Assembly (NCBI GenBank): GCA_036785375.1
Contig: JAWMAR010000305.1
Coordinates: 682,001-746,000 of the forward strand
Reading direction: 5' to 3'
Length of the DNA stretch: 64,000 nt
Origin: Leucoraja ocellata
Lineage: Eukaryota
Shown one piece after another: positions 1,885-56,901 of this stretch (the stretch's first letter is position 1; every line of letters begins with the position of its first letter). The notes beneath the pieces were generated by a model. That model ran no database searches and was not told the DNA's origin. It was given only the letters and a program-made list of their open reading frames with translations. Both the position numbers and the translations under genes were made by a program.

Positions 1885-2755
1885 GATTAGATTAGATTAG
1901 ATTAGATTAGATTAGATTTGTTTATTGTCATTCAGACCTTTCGGTCTGAACGAAATTCTGTTTCCCTGCAGTCATACATATAATTTAAAAAAAATGACAA
2001 AACACATAGTCAACACAAATTTAACATCCACCACAGTGAGTTCACCAAACACCTCCTCACTGTGGTGGAAGGCAAAATCTTAAAGTCTCTGGCTCTTCCC
2101 TCTTTGTTCTCCCTCTGAGCCGAGGCGACGGTTCAAACTCCGCGGGTGGTCGCTGCCTCGCCACAGCTCAGAGGCCGAGTCAGGTCTCCGCTGCTGCTGC
2201 CGCCGCCTCCGCCACAGCTTCGGGGCCGAGTCAGGTCTCCGCTGCTGCTGCCGCTGCTACAGCTTCGGTGCCGAGTCAGGTCTCCGCTGCTGCTGCCGCT
2301 GCCGCCGCCGCTGCTACAGCTTCGGTGCCGGGTCAGGTCTCCGCTGCTGCTGCCGCTGCTGCCGCCACAGCTCCAGGGCCGAGTCAGGCCCCCGCTGCCG
2401 CTGCCACCGCCACAGCTTCGGTGCCGAGTCAGGTCTCCGCCGCTGCTGCCGCTACAGCTTCGGTGCCGAGTCAGGCCCCCGCCGCCGCTACAGCTTCGGT
2501 GCCGGGTCAGGTCTCCGCCGCTGCTGCCGCCGGCACAGCTCCATTGCCGCCAGCTCCGCCATTAGGCCTCGGCGCAGACAGAGACGGGGGATACGACCAA
2601 AGAAAAAGTCGCATCCCCCGAAGGAAGAGGCCAAAGCATGTTTCTCCCACCCCACCCACACACATACACAACTTAATAAAACAAAATTAACTAAAACATG
2701 ACAAGGAACAAAACGAAAGAAAAAAAACAGACGGACTGCAGGTGGGCCGCAGCTG
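1885..2755 (-). mobile_element. GC-rich non-autonomous retroposon (copy A) with Rex1/Babar-type 3' stem-loop and (CTAAT)n tail
   Basis: The minus-strand end is TTTCG-TTCAGACC-GAAA-GGTCTGAA-TGACAATAAA followed by (CTAAT)n. Both ends are homologous to 55073-55905. Confidence 0.75.
2161..2535. repeat. GC-rich minisatellite, 8 units of CYACAGCTTCGGTGCCGAGTCAGGTCTCCG plus a variable (CTG/CCG)n tract
   Basis: The tandem units are directly visible, about 36-57 bp long, and differ by whole triplets. Confidence 0.95.
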
Positions 2756-2967: not shown

Positions 2968-3463
2968 AGGGCCTGCCCTACTTGGACACGAGTTTAGAAG
3001 ACCCTAGACGAGTTGAAAAAAATGTCAAGATCACCGAAGTAAAAGACCTCCTACGACCATGTCTACAACCTCCTACGACTATGTCTACGACCTCCCACGA
3101 CATGTCTACAACCTCCTACGACCCCTCTCGACCTCAGTCTTCCACACCTAAGACTAACTACAACTAGCTACGAGTGGAAAATGACCACATGATAAAATGT
3201 CAAGTTTGCATTTTTTTTTTCTCGGGCCAGTTACCGACCTACGACTATCTACGACTACCATCACAATCTACTACGACCTACCTACGAGTAAAAAGTATCA
3301 ATTTTTTCCATGCCAACCTTTTTTTTACTCGTGGACATTTTTTATCAGGCTGGAAAAAACGCCTGCGACCTCCTATGACCTTGTGGTGACCATGCTGCGA
3401 GTATGAGTCAAGGACAAACTCGGCAGAGGTCGCCAATTAGGTCATGAAAGTGGGACAGGGGCT
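2968..3463. mobile_element. PIF/Harbinger-type MITE (496 bp) with TAA target-site duplication, inserted into a Penelope pLTR fragment
   Basis: TIRs are AGGGCCTGCCCTACTT and AAGTGGGACAGGGGCT, with TAA at 2965-2967 and 3464-3466. The host repeat gag-taa-ctcag is restored on removal. Internal CTACGAC repeats are present. Confidence 0.85.
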
Positions 3464-4318
3464 TAACTCAGTGGCACAGGCAGCATCTCTAGAGAGAAGG
3501 AATGGGTGGCATAACCCATTTCTTCTCTCTGGAAATGCTGTCTTTTCCGCTGAGTTACTCCAGCATTTTGTGTCTATCTTCGGTTTAAACCAGCATCTGC
3601 TTTTCTTTCCTACACATGATTTTTCAACTTGTTGATTTATTAGAGTAAATAATAATTCAGGAAAGGGAGCACAAATAGGCATTACTTAAGTGATTTCGAT
3701 TAGGCCAACAAAAATTAAAGTGCATGTTTATTTATTGACAGGAATTATTTAAGAGAATACAAAGAAAAAGTGCAAATGATGGCTCATGTGTGCTTTCACT
3801 GACAGAATTATTAGTCTCAGCTTTATGGGAGACACAGTTTTACCTCATTTTTTAAATGCAAGATAACAAGTCAAGTTAGGTGCAGCAATAAACAGTGTAA
3901 AGGGGTTCAGAAGGTTACAAAACGCTTAAGGCGAGTGGGAAATAGTGTGGCATGCAGAGTTCAATAAAGGAATTGATAGAAAGTACTCTAGTTATCTAAA
4001 TGGTTAAAACCTAGGAATAGTGGAGAAGTAGACAGATGGAGCTCATGTAAAGCACCAACTGAACACATGTTGACATGGAATTAAAATTATAAATGGAAGA
4101 TTACCTTTCATCCCCAGGGAAGAAGACGACATAAGGATGGACGTTACATTTAGGTAGCTTGAACTTTAATTAGACTTTATTTAGAGCACTGTGGGCAGTT
4201 AAATGCAAAGGAAGTTATGTTGTTCAGAGAGTACATAGACAAAATTGATTTTGGAACAAGAATGATTAAAATTACTCCCTTCAAACAAATGCAAGATGAA
4301 TAGATTCAATGGGCAAAA

Positions 4319-18864: not shown

Positions 18865-19460
18865 CTGTACTTACACTTTCATGTCCTTGTAACCAAAACA
18901 CTTCAAAGCCGATGAATTACCTTTGAAGTGCATATAAAGTTCTATAAAGAACTGCAGCCAATTTGCACAAAGCAAGTTCCTCAAAGTGTAATGAGATAAG
19001 GAGAATAAATAACTCTTTATTTTCCTTGTTCTCCCTCAGAATGTTTACAATTTGCAAACAATAATGTTTTTATCCACCTCATTTGAAATCCTCGGTCTTT
19101 CTTTAATTGGACTTCATTGGACTTTATCTTGCACTAAATGTTACTCCGTTTATCCTGTACCTATACACTTTGGATGGCTTTATTGTAATCACTTATTGTC
19201 TTTCCGCTGACTGGTTAGCATGCCACAAAAGCTTTTCACTGTGCCTCGGTACACGTGACAATAAACTAAACTAACATAAATTTTTGATGTCAATAAATGA
19301 AGAGAGAGCAGGAACCCATTTATGCAGGGAACACAATGCGATTATTATCAGATCATACGAGTTAATTATGTTGGCCAAGAAATAAATATTGAACGATAGA
19401 CTGGGGAAAGTTCCCCAGTCCAAATTCAAGTAGTGGCATGGACTTCCTTATATTCATAGA
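18865..19460 (-). mobile_element. Degenerate Deu-domain SINE (SacSINE-like) remnants, with a plus-strand Rex1-type 3' end at about 19085-19275
   Basis: gcagccaatttgcacaaagcaagttcc and agtagtggcatggacttcctta resemble the reverse complement of the recalled SacSINE/AmnSINE consensus. The Rex-type end is TTTCA-CTGTGCC-TC-GGTACACG-TGACAATAAA(CTAAA)n. Confidence 0.55.
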
Positions 19461-22100: not shown

Positions 22101-23784
22101 TTTCTATCAAAGATGTATATAGAGACACAGAACTGTCACAGAAAAAGACACAAAGTGCTGGAGTAACTCAGCGGATCAAGCAGCATCTCTGGAGAACATG
22201 GATTGATGACATTTCGGATGGGGCCTTTCTCTGGAATAGCAAAGGTGTGTGCCTATTTAACGGCACGCATTCATCGACCAATATGTCCTTTTAGCAAGTG
22301 GTGCAAGATAAACCTTTTGTGACTAATGCTGTAAATGTGCATTAATAAACAAGGAAATTATGAAAATGCAAAAATGTTCTTAGGAAAATTCATCTTGTAA
22401 TAATAAAATTAAAATTAAGGAAAAATGAGCACTTCTATCGACAAAATACAATTTGACCTAAATTTATTTAAAAATATCATATTTGTCTAACGTAAATCAG
22501 TCAGGAGCCAAGGGGAGAGGATTTTGATGACGCATCAGGTCCCATTACCATGGTATTTTATCTTTGCATCAAATCTCTTTATTGAAGTGAGACTTAGTCC
22601 AGATTTGATTAATTATCTCAAATAATGCAACTCCCTGGTTAACACATCAGAAATCAATGGCAAGAGGTGCCTGCACGTTTCTTCGCAGACAGTAATCAAA
22701 GAATGAAGAGACAATTTGCCCTAAATATATTGACAGATTTGTACAAATGGCAGCAATGGATCGATGTTGCCCGCACACTCCCTTGAAGTACCTAGTTCAA
22801 TAAACTTAGCCTGGTCATTAGCTGGAACCGGAAGTCTGGCCTACGTATTGTCAGGAAGACGACGGCTGGAGGCCTGCAGCAGCCTGGGGCTTGAATAGAA
22901 CAGGCACCGTTTATAACACCTAGAGCATGGACTGGACTCCTAAAATGGTGTCAAAATATGGCCTCTCTTGCACGTGGGATAAGCAGACTATTTCTGTACA
23001 ATTTGTTCATCAGGGATGTGCTTAGGTATGGCAATACTCCATTGGACTGTAAGAAAATAATTTTACTGTGTGTTTGCACTGACAATAAAAGCATCGCTGA
23101 ACCACTGAATAGCGGGCTCCTGAAACACGCAGCCAAGGGTGGGGATGGAAGCAAATACAATAGTGGTGTTTAAAAGGCTTTTAGGTAGGCACATGGATAT
23201 ACAGGGAATGGAGAGATATGGTTCACATGCAGGCAGAGAGGATCAACCTGGCATGTGTAAGAAGGAACTACAGATGCTGGTATAAACTGAAGATAGACAC
23301 AAAAAGCTGGAGTAACTCAGCGGGACAGACAGCATCTGAGAAGGAATGGGTGATGTTTCGGGTCGAGACCCTTCCATTATGGTTGCCACAGAAATATCTG
23401 CTGAAGGGTCTGTTCGTATGCTGTGCCATTCTATTTTCTGTTTATGTTTTTATATTTGTCACTCTGACACGGCTGTTAGAGGTTATGGGGAGAAGGCAAG
23501 AGAATGGGGTAAGGAGGGAGAGGTAGATCAGCCATGATTGAATGGTGGAGTAGACTTGAATGGCCTAATTCTACTTCTATCACTTATGATCTTATGACCT
23601 AATACATACATGCCTAACACAGACAGCTCACTATATTCTCTCGTCTTCAACGGCTAGATATATCACTGTCACGAAAGGCATGATTGTAACCACATAATAG
23701 TTGGGCTGCATTTTTCCACTTAGAAATATGACCTGCAATTTAAGGAGTCAAGTGTATGACACACAAAAAATAACATGACAAGTA

Positions 23785-24659: not shown

Positions 24660-24850
24660 ATGGACAATGGAGAACCCGGCGTGGGGGGGGGGGGGGGGGG
24701 GGGGGGGGTGAGAACAATGGAGGACTTGGTGTGGGGGCACTTTGTAACTTAGTAAGCACCCTTTATGGGTGTCTATTTGCATACCTTGGGTATATAAGCA
24801 AAGAATTTTACTGTGACCAGTCACATGAGACAATAAAGTATTCATTCAAT
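24660..24850 (+). mobile_element. Non-coding retroposon 3' end with Rex1-type stem-loop and an internal G run
   Basis: TTTTA-CTGTGAC-CA-GTCACATG-AGACAATAAA followed by an (ATTC)n tail. Confidence 0.55.
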
Positions 24851-51125: not shown

Positions 51126-52959
51126 GAAGAGTGCGAAAAGTCTTCGAAGTTGGTTGTTTCCCCAAAAGATTGGGAATATAGAAAATAAGCAAAATCAAAC
51201 TCATTTGAGTTGTAAGTATCAATTAAGTGAAAAAAACCACTATTCTCATGTTAAATACTGGTGTTTTACCAACTACCTGCAGAAAAATGTTGCCTCACTC
51301 ATTAATTTTAAAACTGAACCCCATTACAAAATGCAAGCCATCTTATTAACTATATTTATTTGCAATAGTTTTCTTGTTGATAAATTTTAAATATCATTAT
51401 ATGTCAATGCAATGGCAAAATGTGAAAAATTGTCAACTTTTCTGCCCTTGACAGATTGATCAGGCTAATATCAGCTGGTGGCCCAACTGACTGCTAGTGT
51501 AAACCATCATTAATAAGAGTGTGAATATAAGAATTTGGTCAGGATGAACTATTCTGGTTAATGGCCAAGTCTCAAACAGAAATTTAACATTTGGTATTTC
51601 ATCTCGAACTTTTAAAACGTTTACATGGTAATTTCAAAACAATTGATAAAAATACTTCACTTTCCCTTCACCTCATGCTGTGAATTAAAATATATCTGTA
51701 TGATATTCATTTTCCATTTCTACTTTAAATGGATATTAATTAGATGTAATCATTTTCTTCCCTGCAGCCTTGCGGAGTAGATCTAAACAAATTACTCTTC
51801 AAGCACAGCAATTTTTATTTGGTCTGACACTATGACAAGTGAAATTAGAATAATTCTAACATAATTTGAGAAGACTTCCAATATTACTGAAACAATTTTG
51901 ACCAACCTTGGTGTATATTAATCAAATCAATCCAGACCGGACTGTCTCCTCAGTAACAGAACATTATCCCATGATTTAATAGCATTTCTAATTACCCTCT
52001 TGGCATATTCTTCTGTGTAAATACACTATAAGAATCATGTATTTTGATTTATTTACCTCCCTTCGTGCAAGGAAGATATCAACATTTTTCTAATTTGAAT
52101 TTAAAGCACTCTGTTGGACATTGCCTGAGGGGAGGGACAGATTCCACCAACTCCATAATTCGTCTCAAAGTAACATCGCTATTACAACACTCCTTTCATT
52201 AAAATTCAACACATCATGATTTTCAGCAGGATGTCAGGTTATATGTTAGGGATGGTAGACAAAAGTGCTGGAGAAACTCTGCGGGTGCAGCAGCATCTGT
52301 GGAGCGAAGGAAGTGTTAGGGATGTCATTTTGAAACAATTTACAAAGAAGCCACTATTATATCAAATTCACGGGATTTCAAACTTTGATGTGTCGGAAAG
52401 ATCTGCAGATGCTGGTTTCTACTAAAGATAGACTAAAATGCTGGAGTAGCTCAGCAGGTCAGGCTGCATCTTTGAAGAAAAGTAATAGGTGATGTTTCAG
52501 ACCCCTTCTTCAGACATCAAACATTGGAATTGCTCAGTTTATAAAAGGGTGACAAAAATGAAAGACTGCAGACAATGTCATGCACATTTTATTATCGAGG
52601 TGCAGAATTTCATGCAAAATTATTAACCAGCTTTAGAGTTTGAAAGTTTAATCACTTTTCTTGTAAATTACTCTTGTCATCAACACAATCTCTTAATCTT
52701 CCCAACACAGTACACCACTTAATCATCATTTCCCTTTATGGATCTTCCCATCTCAGGGAAGAGGTGAGAGATAAATATACAAACATGCAAGCTCACGGAC
52801 TCTAAATACTATCTTCATGTGTGTATATATTTATATTATGGTATATGGACACACTTATCTGTTTTGTAGTAAATGCCTACTATGTTCTGTGTGCTAAAGC
52901 AAAGCAAGAATTTCATTGTCCTATACAGGGACATATGACAGTAAACTCATTTGAACTTG

Positions 52960-53960
52960 AACTTCCTCCCACCTTGCTTCCCGTAAAAAACACATTCCAT
53001 TCTCATATCCCCCTCCATCTCCCTCATATCAGGGGCCTCTGAGATTACTTCCTTCTACCACTACTGTGGCAATCTATCGACCACTGTTAACAGAACCCTT
53101 GAAAAGCAACTTAGATATTCCATGCACCTTTGATTCAGATTCAGATTCAATTTTAATTGTCATTGTCAGTGTACAGTACAGAGACAACGAAATGCATTTA
53201 GCATCTCCCTGGAAGAGCGACATAGCAAACGATTTGAATAAATAATAATAAGTGTCCGGGGGGGGGTGGTGATTGGCAGTCACCGAGGTACGTTGTTGAG
53301 TAGAGTGACAGCCGCCGGAAAGAAGCTGTTCCTCGACCTGCTGGTTCGGCAACGGAGAGACCTGTAGCGCCTCCCGGATGGTAGGAGGGTAAACAGTCCA
53401 TGGTTGGGGTGAGAGCAGTCCTTGGCGATGCTGAGCGCCCTCCGCAGACAGCGCTTGCTTTGGACAGACTCAATGGGGGGGAGCGAGGAACCGGTCACAG
53501 TCTGAACAAGGGTAGAGTTCTTCTGTTCCCGATTTCCACCCCACCAGACTCTGCATTCAATGGATTATCCTTACCAAGTTCCAGTACCTTCAATACAAAT
53601 CTAGCACCCGACATCTCCTCCCCTTCCAGTATTCCAAAAGGACTGTTCCTGTTCTCCCATCTCTGTCAGATACTCCCTTTCACATGGCACCTTACCAGGA
53701 ACTTTACCAAAGTACTGCAGGAAATGCACCATTTGTCATTGCACCTCATCCTTTCCCACCATCTAGGGACCCAAAAGGTTTTTACAGATGAAGCAGCAAT
53801 TTGCTTGCAGTTCTTCCATTACACTGTACTCTCAATAAGGTTTCATTTTCATTGAAGAAACGAAACACAGACTGGGTGACAGCTTAGCATAAGGAACATC
53901 ACCTTCTGCCCAAGATCGCTGCAGTCCTCCAGGCACAATATCAGATTCAAGTAACTCCTT
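52960..53960 (+). mobile_element. Degenerate Penelope-like RT thumb/linker/EN fragment hosting a Rex1 insertion
   Basis: Frameshifted remnants resemble RVPLV.TFHPTSL.IQ.II and a Cys-rich linker. Confidence 0.55.
53132..53499 (-). mobile_element. Young Rex1/Babar LINE 3' end
   Basis: ORF 53280..53498 (SHPNHGLFTLLPSGRRYRSLRCRTSRSRNSFFPAAV), a 3' stem-loop and a (GAATCT)n tail. CpGs are retained. Confidence 0.9.
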
Positions 53961-54408: not shown

Positions 54409-55072
54409 CCCACCAGTGGAAACATCCTATACATGTCGACCATCTAAGCCTTTGACCATTCTGTATGTATCAATGAGGTCTCCACTCATCTTCTCAACTC
54501 CAGTGAGTACAGGCCCAGTGCTGACAAATGCTCATCATAGGTTAACCTACTAATTCCTGGGATCATTCTTGTAAACCTCCTCTGGACCCTCTCCAGAGCC
54601 AGCACATCCTTTCTCAGATATGGTGCCCAAAATAGCTCACAATATTCCAAATGCGATCTTACCAACACTTTATGGAGCCTCAATATTACGTCCCTGTTTT
54701 TGTATACAAGCCTTCTTGAAATAAATGCTAGCATTGAATTTGCTTTCTTTACTACCGATTCGACTTGCAGATTAACTTTTTGGGAATCCTGTACCAGAAC
54801 TCCCAAGTCCCTTTGCATCTCCAATTTCTGGATACTCACCCCATTTAGAAAATATTTGATACCTTTATTCCTACTACCAAAATGCATGACTCCACACTTT
54901 GCTATACTATATTCCATCTGCCACTTCTCTACCCACTCTCCCAACCTGTCCAAGTCATTCTGCAGAGTCCCTGCTTTCTTGGCACTACCTGCCCCTCTCC
55001 ACCTATTTTCGTATAATCCGCAAACTTTGCTACAGAGCCTTCCACCCCCTTGGCCAAATCATTAATATGCAA

Positions 55073-55905
55073 TACAATACAATACAATTTATTTGTCATT
55101 TGAACCCCATTGAGGTTCAAACGAAACGTTGTTTCTGCAGTCATACACACAAAAAAGAACCAAGCCACAACACAATTTACACAAACATCCATCACAGCGC
55201 ATCTCCTCCTCGCTGTGATGAAAGGCAAAGACTTATCTCTCCCCTGCACTTCCCATTCCCCTCCCGATGTCAGAGTCAAAGTCAAAGCCCCCGGCGGGCG
55301 ATGGTAATTGCCCCGCGGCCATTAACGCCGCGCAGGGTGATGCAAGGCCACGCTCCGGGTCTTGTTGTTGGAGCCCCCGGCGGGCACTAGCAAAGTCCCA
55401 CAGCCATTCCAAGCCACGCCAGGCGATGATGTAAGGCCCCGCTCCAGGTACTATTCAACCCCGCAACTCGGGCGGGTGAAGTCGCCGTTGTGGAAGCCCC
55501 GAAAAGCGGTCTCCCAGCAGGGACCCGCGGGCTCCCGGTGTCACTATCCACCGGACCTGCGGTAAGCCTCCGAATCCCTGGGGTCGGGTCGCAGCAGCGC
55601 GCCACCACCGCTCCTCCCGCTCCGAACTTGGCCAGCTCCACGATGGTGAGTAGGTCCGCAGGCTCCGCGACTGGAGCCCCAGGTCGTTCCTGCTGGAGGC
55701 CGCTCCACGGTGCTAGGCCCCAACGACAATGGAGACCGGACAGAGTTCTCCGTGCAGGGGATAGATTTTAAAAGTTTCCCCCACCCCCCGCCCCCCACAC
55801 ACATACACAAAAAAATAAAATAAAAACTACATTCAACGAGACAAAAAATAATAAAAAGACGGACGGACTGCAGAGGCCGCTGCGACGCGAGTCGCACCAC
55901 CCACC
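55073..55905 (-). mobile_element. GC-rich non-autonomous retroposon (copy B) with Rex1-type 3' stem-loop and (GTATT)n tail, nested in CR1
   Basis: The ends are homologous to 1885-2755. The CR1 host rejoins at tgcaa (55068) and tacaa (55906), an imperfect TSD. Confidence 0.8.
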
Positions 55906-56061
55906 TACAACGTGACGAGTAGCAGCCCCAGCACCTATCCTTGCGGAACTCCACTAGTCACTGGCAGCCAACCAGAAAAAAGCCCCCTTTGTCTTCTGCC
56001 ATCCAGCCAACCTGCTATCCATGCTAGTATTTCCCCATTGATAACATGTGGCACCTTATCA

Positions 56062-56205
56062 CCTGACACCCTCTGAGTGAGGGCTACATGTATATATGTA
56101 TGTAGTTTGTTTTGTTGTGCTATTCTTATAACAAATGTAAATCACTTTGGCCAACGAGAGTTGTTTTTTTAAATGTGCTATATAAATAAATGTGACTTGA
56201 CTTGA
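56062..56205 (+). mobile_element. L2-clade-type 3' end with (GACTT)n tail and 7-bp TSD CTTATCA
   Basis: tgtaaatcactttgg...aaatgtgctatataaataaa followed by (gactt)n. CTTATCA lies at 56055-56061 and 56206-56212. Confidence 0.7.
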
Positions 56206-56901
56206 CTTATCAAAGGCTTTCTGAAAATCTAAGTAAATAACATCTTCTGACTCCTTTGTCTGTCCTGTTATTTACTTCTTCAAAGAATTCCAGCAAATTT
56301 GTAAAGCAAGACCTCCCCTTCACAAAGTCATGCTAACTTCGGCCTATTTTATCGTGAACTTCAAAGTACTCTGTAACCTCATCCTTTATAACAATGGACT
56401 AAAATCTTACCAACCATCGAAGTCAAACTAATCAGCCTATAGTTCCCACTATTCTGCCTTACTCCATTTTTGTGCAGCGGGGTTATAGTGGCAATTTTCC
56501 AATCATCTGGGACCACTCCTGACTCTAGTGATTCCTGAAATATCACTATCAATGCCTCCACAATCTCTAATGCCACCTCTTTCAGAACCCTAGGGTGCAG
56601 TCCACCCGGATGAGGTGACTTATCCACTTTCAGCCCTTTCAGCTTCCCAAGCACCTTTTCCCTGGTAATAGCCACTCCACAAACTTCCACCCCGACTCCC
56701 TTGAATTTCAGGCTTGTTGCTGGTGTATTCCACTGTGAAGACCGATGCAAAAAAGTTATTCAATTCTTCTGCCATTTCTTTATTCCCCATTATCACTTCT
56801 TCTGCATCATTCTCCAGCGATCCAACGTCCACTCTTGCTTCTTTCTTGCTCTTTATATAACTGAAGAAACTCTTGCTAGCCTCATATTATTGACTAGCTT
56901 A

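Follow-up and report, generated by a model that had tools for sequence, protein, structure and literature searches.

Two protein-less elements of approximately 0.85 kb, referred to here as copies A and B, lie on the minus strand of the 64-kb window (the whole stretch of DNA that was analyzed). They probably represent two subfamilies of one retroposon with Rex1-type ends, three hairpins, a GC-rich repeat middle, a likely promoter of its own at the 5′ end, and likely copying in trans by the Rex1 reverse transcriptase (RT). An earlier interpretation made from the letters alone (the sequence-only reading) had proposed a retroposon that is possibly not yet characterized. Its account of the element as non-autonomous, non-tRNA, retroposed through minus-strand RNA, multi-copy (for B), and equipped with hairpins kept through two-sided changes stands, but both termini are of Rex1 type, and the element is thus a Rex1 derivative and no orphan class. 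That reading had also allowed for a match to a described Rex1; the match is found at both ends, while words from the interior have none in the first 400 nt of the Rex1 sequences listed. The features are collected in Table 1.

Table 1. Features of copies A and B and of the related sequences in the 64-kb window
Feature	Position	Strand	Basis
Copy A, whole element; lacks approximately the first 20-25 nt present in B	1885..2755	-	alignment
A, pentamer microsatellite tail, (GATTA)6.8 on the plus strand	1885..1918	-	TRF
A, Rex1-type 3′ terminal motif with predicted hairpin 1 (stem 1928-1953, GAAA loop)	1921..1955	-	folding and pattern
A, predicted hairpin 2	2027..2069	-	folding and alignment
A, GC-rich tandem repeat, period ~45 nt, 7.7 units	2174..2530	-	TRF
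A, predicted hairpin 3: 13-bp stem and one further pair, G-U pairs on the minus strand	2585..2620	-	folding
A, 5′ block: end of Rex1-like motif, T-rich tract, GT-rich motif	2640..2755	-	alignment
5′-truncated Rex1 copy (ORF C-terminus and 3′ UTR), in-window reference for the Rex1 3′ end	53130..53549	-	protein matches
Host RT gene, presumably CR1 type, part downstream of the insertion (continues upstream from 55906)	54486..55067	-	RT motifs
Copy B, whole element, 838 nt	55068..55905	-	ends set by empty-site joint 55067 to 55906, 1-2 nt ambiguity
B, pentamer microsatellite tail, (CAATA)3.8 on the plus strand	55070..55088	-	TRF
B, Rex1-type 3′ terminal motif with predicted hairpin 1 (stem 55096-55124)	55088..55126	-	folding and pattern
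B, predicted hairpin 2	55188..55222	-	folding and alignment
B, two diverged ~86-nt units	55285..55455	-	0/1000 shuffles; skip and go-back read joints
B, predicted hairpin 3, damaged by a ~11-nt deletion, intact in family reads	55730..55756	-	reads
B, 5′ block, with Rex1 5′-terminal motif at 55901-55876	55774..55905	-	motif scan and alignment

The two copies share a 5′ block, which matches at 73% over 120 columns (A 2640-2753 versus B 55774-55883), and a 3′ end of about 200 nt, which matches at 64% over 230 columns, as the sequence-only reading had noticed. The scores of the two blocks (100 and 106) exceeded those of all 300 dinucleotide shuffles (means of ∼25), and no third copy of either block occurs within the 64-kb window. 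The middles had been described as non-aligning. The remaining ∼400 nt indeed align weakly and with many gaps (3 of 300 shuffles reach the score), but homology between A and B extends ∼100 nt into this supposed middle and takes in hairpin 3. Tandem repeats are present in both middles, with units of ∼45 nt in A and ∼86 nt in B, and by alignment the GC-rich middles themselves are unrelated. The CpG observed/expected ratio is 0.87 in A and 0.89 in B versus 0.37 in the whole window, which is repeat-rich animal DNA, presumably of a skate or ray judging from its repeats, and has a GC content of 41%. No flanking duplication of more than 5 nt was found around copy A. A derivation of the A repeat unit from the 5′ motif was considered and rejected (score reached by 242 of 1,000 shuffles). 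Other repeats in the window include a degenerate tandem repeat with a short CTACGAC-type unit, which lies immediately 3′ of copy A (plus strand, 3040-3150), and a short repeat of 50 to 130 nt (families D3-D5 and D13) with 14 to 19 copies over 15860-58474, often beside an inverted partner (e.g., 2919-2967 and 3555-3604).

Copy B is a clean insertion, free of target-site duplication, into an RT gene that we take to be of the CR1 type from its RT motifs. On one side of B the host RT is translated as ...GVPQG*VLGLLLVTL and on the other as (Y)INDL...KFAD. Contigs and reads of four public runs were mapped at 80% likeness to copy B only, with its flanks (54900-56060). The empty-site joint, which skips 55068-55905 with an ambiguity of 1 to 2 letters, was recovered in 2 contigs of run X2 and 27 reads of run X23. 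The flanks at 55905 and 55070 are mixed (agreement of 0.35 and 0.42), and B is covered over its whole length. The contigs placed on B and its flanks numbered 24,360 in X1 and 23,234 in X2, counts that include the CR1 flanks, and bear out for the B family the multi-copy nature claimed for the retroposon. Summed depth in X1 ranges from ∼2e5 to 1.5e6 over most element bins and from 1.5e4 to 3e4 over the T-rich tract; the element depth is on par with the CR1 flank peak of 6e5 to 8e5, depth not being equal to copy number. Among the 24 runs listed, 20 contain B wholly or partly and eight contain half or more of its words; the runs with B represent four organism codes and ten studies, and no RNA run is on record as carrying B among those listed. 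Among the difference rows listed, 22 of 40 fall in B, so this copy differs from the majority of its family by at least ∼2.6%. In the reads, skip and go-back joints spanning 55214-55448 suggest that the number of ∼86-nt units varies among B-family copies. The surroundings of B hold two further LINE-related features. One is another type of tail (AATAAAT followed by GACTT repeats; 56150-56215, plus strand) in the CR1 host upstream of B, which we presume to be an L2-type end. The other is a frameshifted RT fragment (56385-56784, minus strand) that matches a Rex1-type protein with an E value of 4e-11 and 25 to 35% identity and probably belongs to another LINE clade.

The 3′ termini of A and B were compared with the Rex1 fragment at 53130-53549, in which their 3′ stem-loop, GACAATAAA-type motif, and pentamer tail are seen again. 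The fragment encodes a LINE ORF C-terminus (53283-53495, minus strand) that matches 104 of 172 candidate proteins, mostly with RT and PF09004 and with a best match of 97%; the matched proteins are fish APE-RT-PF09004 ORFs. None of the papers searched links DUF1891/PF09004 to Rex1, so the Rex1 label was tied through the protein N-termini. The matched protein P0082 begins with MAARMDAAA and contains PPLPSIFLTNARSITHKMDEL, in agreement with by-eye translations of the published Rex1 rows HypSab_Rex1-5 and LeuEri_Rex1-9. The 3′ UTR of the Rex1 piece ends, as in A and B, with TTTCGTT, a stem-loop, AATGACAA..TAAA, and a pentamer repeat. Two versions of a TTTCRYT-gap-GACAA(W)TAAA type pattern found 2 and 3 sites in the window versus 0.01 and 0.00 expected, and these five sites belong to A, to B, to the Rex1 piece (at 53152-53192), and to two other tails. 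All five tails keep the four basal pairs of the stem-loop, and the upper stems differ. In alignments with the UTR of the Rex1 piece, the score of the A 3′ end was reached by none of 300 shuffles and that of the B 3′ end, a weak alignment, by 13 of 300; seven of eight comparisons of A and B with the other four tails in the window were reached by at least 20 of 300 shuffles. Judged by these patterns, hairpin 1 is the generic Rex1 3′ stem-loop. The Rex1 end has been described as a conserved 3′ UTR followed by a variable oligonucleotide repeat (PMC6274825), and 3′-end stem-loops have been described for stringent-type LINE/SINE pairs (PMC3747384). Further Rex1-type 3′ tails with other stems and repeats match the strict pattern at 19040-19275 and 52760-52960, and decayed ones lie at 24790-24845 and 23040-23100 (all on the plus strand). 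A scan for the pattern gave no match in viral contigs, none in prokaryote genomes, and one in metagenome contigs (L001, 1-5917), which has no homology beyond the motif and was rejected as a relative, being a chance match in eukaryote-like, GC-rich, microsatellite-laden DNA.

The 5′ end was compared with the first 400 nt of ∼1,000 CR1-group consensus rows (PMC13343379, supplementary table 2), about a third or fewer of which are Rex1, judging from row numbers. Within these 400-nt starts, the word TCGCAGCGGC occurs seven times, always near the start of a Rex1 row; GGCGGCGCG occurs 26 times, and all 22 among the matches listed are Rex1 5′ termini; both occurrences of GCAGCGGCCT are in stingray Rex1. 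Copy B carries the two-part motif within its first 30 nt, 4 nt inside the 5′ end, and this is the sole such site in the window. The combined pattern, which was designed with B known, was found in none of 100 window shuffles and none of 5,000 shuffles of B; the 5′ match to Rex1 covers ∼30 nt and a T-rich tract. At 55896 and 55899 most reads have a G, so that their minus strand contains GGCGGCGCG. In Rex1 the motif codes for M-A-A-R-x-x-A-A-A and is followed by a T-rich tract. The B motif has no ATG, its spacer is 2 nt longer than in Rex1-9, and it is not preceded by AAGATGG, as it is in most Rex1 rows. The missing ATG and the longer spacer suggest that the motif no longer has a coding role and has likely been retained as a signal at the nucleotide level. 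A variant B 5′ end in reads of run X22 (loose end behind 55883, 1,928 reads) is even closer to stingray Rex1-11, and the extreme 5′ end of B (55868-55905, minus strand) folds into a small GC-rich hairpin of -18.2 kcal/mol.

Rex1-like sequence at both ends would also be expected from a plain internal deletion, the leading alternative, which we regard as unlikely but deserving of weight. A and B would then consist of a long 5′ region and the 3′ UTR of some Rex1 family, and the middle and hairpins 2 and 3 would be ordinary Rex1 sequence, with nothing acquired or swapped; the mechanism would be the one preferred here and the origin different. Such an origin would fit the tandem subunits reported close to the 5′ UTR in certain elements that lack ORF1 (PMC13343379) and the GC-rich tandem repeat in the first 400 nt of LeuEri_Rex1-7. 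The interior of the element argues against it. Among 12 exact words from the rest of A and B, 11 have no match in the first 400 nt of the ∼1,000 CR1-group rows and the twelfth matches once, in an unrelated L2, so that no Rex1 row is matched. The GT-rich motif and hairpin 3 are not visible by eye in the first 400 nt of the Rex1 starts of little skate, stingray, and sawfish (19, 13, and 5 rows, respectively). In addition, the ORF of the Rex1 rows begins in or just past the motif, which leaves no room for a 600-nt UTR, and the middles hold no coding remnant. No autonomous partner with long, high-identity ends was found among the first 400 nt of the consensus rows.

The arms of hairpin 1 (A 1931-1938/1943-1950; B 55099-55106/55114-55121) and hairpin 2 (A 2029-2038/2058-2067; B 55190-55199/55211-55220) fold where the sequence-only reading had placed them. 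Its three two-sided changes between A and B in hairpin 1 were recovered by reading them off the arms, since MAFFT misaligned this hairpin, and its two in hairpin 2 were recovered from the MAFFT alignment. The UCG/UGA extension with its G-U pair forms on the minus strand only, as had been claimed, and the GAAA loop is found in A but is absent from B. A third hairpin, which had gone unreported, is intact in A and damaged in B. Its region in A has a folding energy of -49.3 kcal/mol on the minus strand versus -33 on the plus strand (z = -4.08, 0 of 200 shuffles), and the sequence of B keeps only a remnant. The mapped reads carry loose ends behind 55743 (1,375 reads in X22, 450 in X23, and 47 contigs in X2), an 11-letter insertion behind 55744 (510 of 2,562 X22 reads), and majority changes at 55730 and 55738. 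Pieced together by eye from reads, the family hairpin 3 has an 11-bp stem of GGAGACCCGAC with GTCGGGTCTCC; the counterpart in A at the same place is GGGGGATACGAC with GTCGCATCCCCC, and three pairs are changed on both sides. Sequence homology alone is not significant between A and B in this region (73 of 300 shuffles), which reflects the deletion in B. Hairpins 1 to 3 together show eight two-sided changes and no broken stem pair, which is suggestive of maintained structure in what is a comparison of two subfamilies, with stems picked for pairing in both and no significance test. Shuffle z-scores favor the minus strand for hairpins 1 and 3 and do not favor it for hairpin 2 (A, -4.93 versus -5.71 on the plus strand; B, -2.37 versus -3.56). 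As a guess, hairpin 2 could extend the protein-binding site or stabilize the RNA; a role of hairpin 3 in limiting scanning or in protecting the 5′ region is likewise guesswork.

Paired changes of this kind could also be produced at the DNA level by template switching at quasi-palindromes, with no selection on RNA structure. In hairpin 1 the three changes adjoin one another, the comparison covers two subfamilies only, and the z-scores of hairpin 2 do not favor the RNA strand, all of which would fit such an origin. We consider it improbable because G-U pairs that can form on the minus strand alone persist at the hairpin 1 base (G-U in three of five tails, A-U in two) and are found as well in hairpin 3, both in A and in the X2 variant, and because the changes in hairpins 2 and 3 are scattered along the stems with no stem pair broken.

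That the partner was an L2 without ORF1 or an RTEX/RTE element instead of Rex1 is very improbable. LeuEri_L2-1 and L2-3 do open with a AAGATGGCG-type start and a T-rich tract, and bipartite elements usually come from RTE (PMC5786205), but the two motif words fall in Rex1 rows only, among the rows listed, and at its 3′ terminus the element agrees with the in-window Rex1 piece.

Searches for coding capacity and small-RNA ancestry agree with the earlier claim that neither tRNA A/B boxes nor protein homology is visible. A tblastn search with 16 long Rex1-type proteins, which recovers the Rex1 piece at 3e-28, finds nothing in A and only matches with E values of 0.22 or higher in B. Pfam returned nothing for any of the four long frames tested, and the single APE-RT ORF of an autonomous Rex1/Babar LINE is absent. 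A short ORF from an ATG common to both GT-rich motifs was rejected, since the frames agree only over MCVGG. ARAGORN found no tRNA in the element, and Rfam gave no match at the gathering score (5 and 5 sub-threshold matches were taken as chance) and none to a self-cleaving HDV-like ribozyme at the 5′ end. The 7SL-, tRNA-, or 5S-derived Pol III head of SINE1, SINE2, or SINE3 elements was not found, and no A-box-like match lies near the 5′ end except for one two-mismatch site in B. In both copies the first 100 nt contain five T-runs of at least 4 (run lengths of 4 to 8), and such runs would stop Pol III transcription. A Pol III SINE whose small-RNA head has decayed and whose tail comes from Rex1 is extremely improbable, for although Rex1-tailed tRNA SINEs are known (SINE2-5_NV with Rex1-24_NV; PMC3747384), these null results, the early T-runs, and the Rex1-like head all speak against it.

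In the poly(A) run X22, first mates map to the plus strand at 8.4:1 over the element versus 2.2:1 over the CR1 flanks, and the bias reaches 16-18:1 in the 5′ part of the element. Assuming a library of the usual stranded type, the RNA of the element corresponds to the minus strand. At the 5′ boundary the depth drops from ∼1,950 to 33, and the 5′ third of the element is covered several times more deeply than the 3′ third. Passengers of host transcripts would be expected near 1:1, which makes an internal promoter likely. Given the assumed strandedness, the element is likely transcribed by Pol II from a promoter of its own. Of the X22 reads, 80% run on into sequence unlike B, possibly due to diverged subfamilies or to read-through or splicing into other sequence. 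The single-cell reads of X23 switch strand along the element, which we read as oligo-dT priming at A-rich tracts, and were set aside for strand inference. The middle of B (55546-55655, plus strand) contains antisense splice-donor-like words (GGTAAG near 55561 and GGTGAGT near 55646), which would be relevant if antisense intronic copies were exonized.

The life cycle that we propose for this Rex1 derivative would begin with Pol II starting at the CpG-rich 5′ end, as early T-runs would stop Pol III and the poly(A) reads are strand-biased. The RNA is predicted to fold hairpins 1 to 3, and the Rex1 APE-RT protein would bind the 3′ stem-loop, as the shared end implies. The pentamer tail would then prime reverse transcription at the nick through a microhomology of 1 to 2 nt, leaving no target-site duplication, as is observed at the B junction. 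The middle is likely dispensable cargo, and slippage at its repeats or switching between templates would bring about its expansion and turnover. Mechanistically, the cycle is of a kind already known.

The closest parallels are the bipartite LINEs (RIME from Ingi, NARTc, Bov-A, RTE-N, Vingi, and R2 derivatives), which likewise join a LINE 5′ end to a LINE 3′ end, have no ORF, and are expected to use Pol II and mobilization in trans (PMC5786205). The 2018 survey names only RTE, Ingi, Vingi, and R2 as sources of such ORF-less elements (PMC5786205), and further cases from RTE have been reported (PMC7245038). In contrast, the ends of A and B are of Rex1 type, a clade outside that list of four, and enclose a GC-rich middle of 500 to 600 nt that differs between the subfamilies. 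Their 5′ terminus is LINE-derived at the level of a motif only, their 3′ terminus comes from the same LINE clade (significant for A, 0/300; weak for B, 13/300), and they hold no protein-coding remnant; A and B are not counted as members of the bipartite class because no single parent LINE is established. With autonomous Rex1/Babar LINEs they share the 5′-terminal motif with its T-rich tract, the 3′ stem-loop of the in-window Rex1 piece, and a conserved 3′ end with a variable oligonucleotide repeat behind it (PMC6274825). They differ from these LINEs in their length (0.85 kb, not ∼3.2 kb), in having neither an APE-RT ORF nor the start codon context, and in hairpins 2 and 3, which are absent from the Rex1 sequences examined (mostly their first 400 nt). 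Rex1-tailed tRNA SINEs such as SINE2-5_NV also carry a borrowed Rex1-type 3′ tail, but A and B have no tRNA or 5S head, contain early T-runs, and are about three times longer. SlmI, HpaI, and OS-SINE1 carry RSg-1 tails, and RSg-1 is placed in Rex1. The SVA/LAVA elements of apes are non-coding, with a GC-rich VNTR core between conserved modules, and SVA depends on L1, ends in a poly(A) tail, and is flanked by target-site duplications. A and B are similarly non-coding with a GC-rich VNTR core (two diverged units with variable joints in B), but they have a Rex1 tail, a microsatellite end, and no duplication, and the L1 signature of poly(A) and target-site duplication is absent.

A non-autonomous Rex1 form of this kind was not found in the literature searched, which took in few subscription papers. 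The words "non-autonomous" and "hairpin" are absent from the portions of PMC13343379 covered, and those of the Squalomix preprint and PMC3381678 contain nothing on this element. A family so abundant may well be catalogued in Dfam or Repbase under an automatic label. A broader reading, which we put forward tentatively and with more doubt than confidence, is that the element belongs to a composite class of skates and rays in which Rex1 termini surround a conserved RNA scaffold (hairpins 2 and 3 not being derived from Rex1) and an exchangeable GC-rich VNTR core. Such a class would be abundant, expressed, and Rex1-driven. It would parallel SVA through independent evolution, would be the first Rex1 parasite that lacks an ORF and has a Pol II promoter of its own, and would have supplied these genomes with CpG-island promoters by the thousands.

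If true, the finding would add Rex1 to the LINE clades that yield ORF-less non-autonomous elements. It would define in less than 1 kb the cis signals that Rex1 needs, the 5′ motif and the 3′ stem-loop, and make RNA recognition by Rex1 testable. Rays are among the animals with the highest Rex1 coverage (PMC13343379), and non-coding copies of this kind might account for part of it. Another possible effect of the family is the spread of CpG-rich promoters across the genome.
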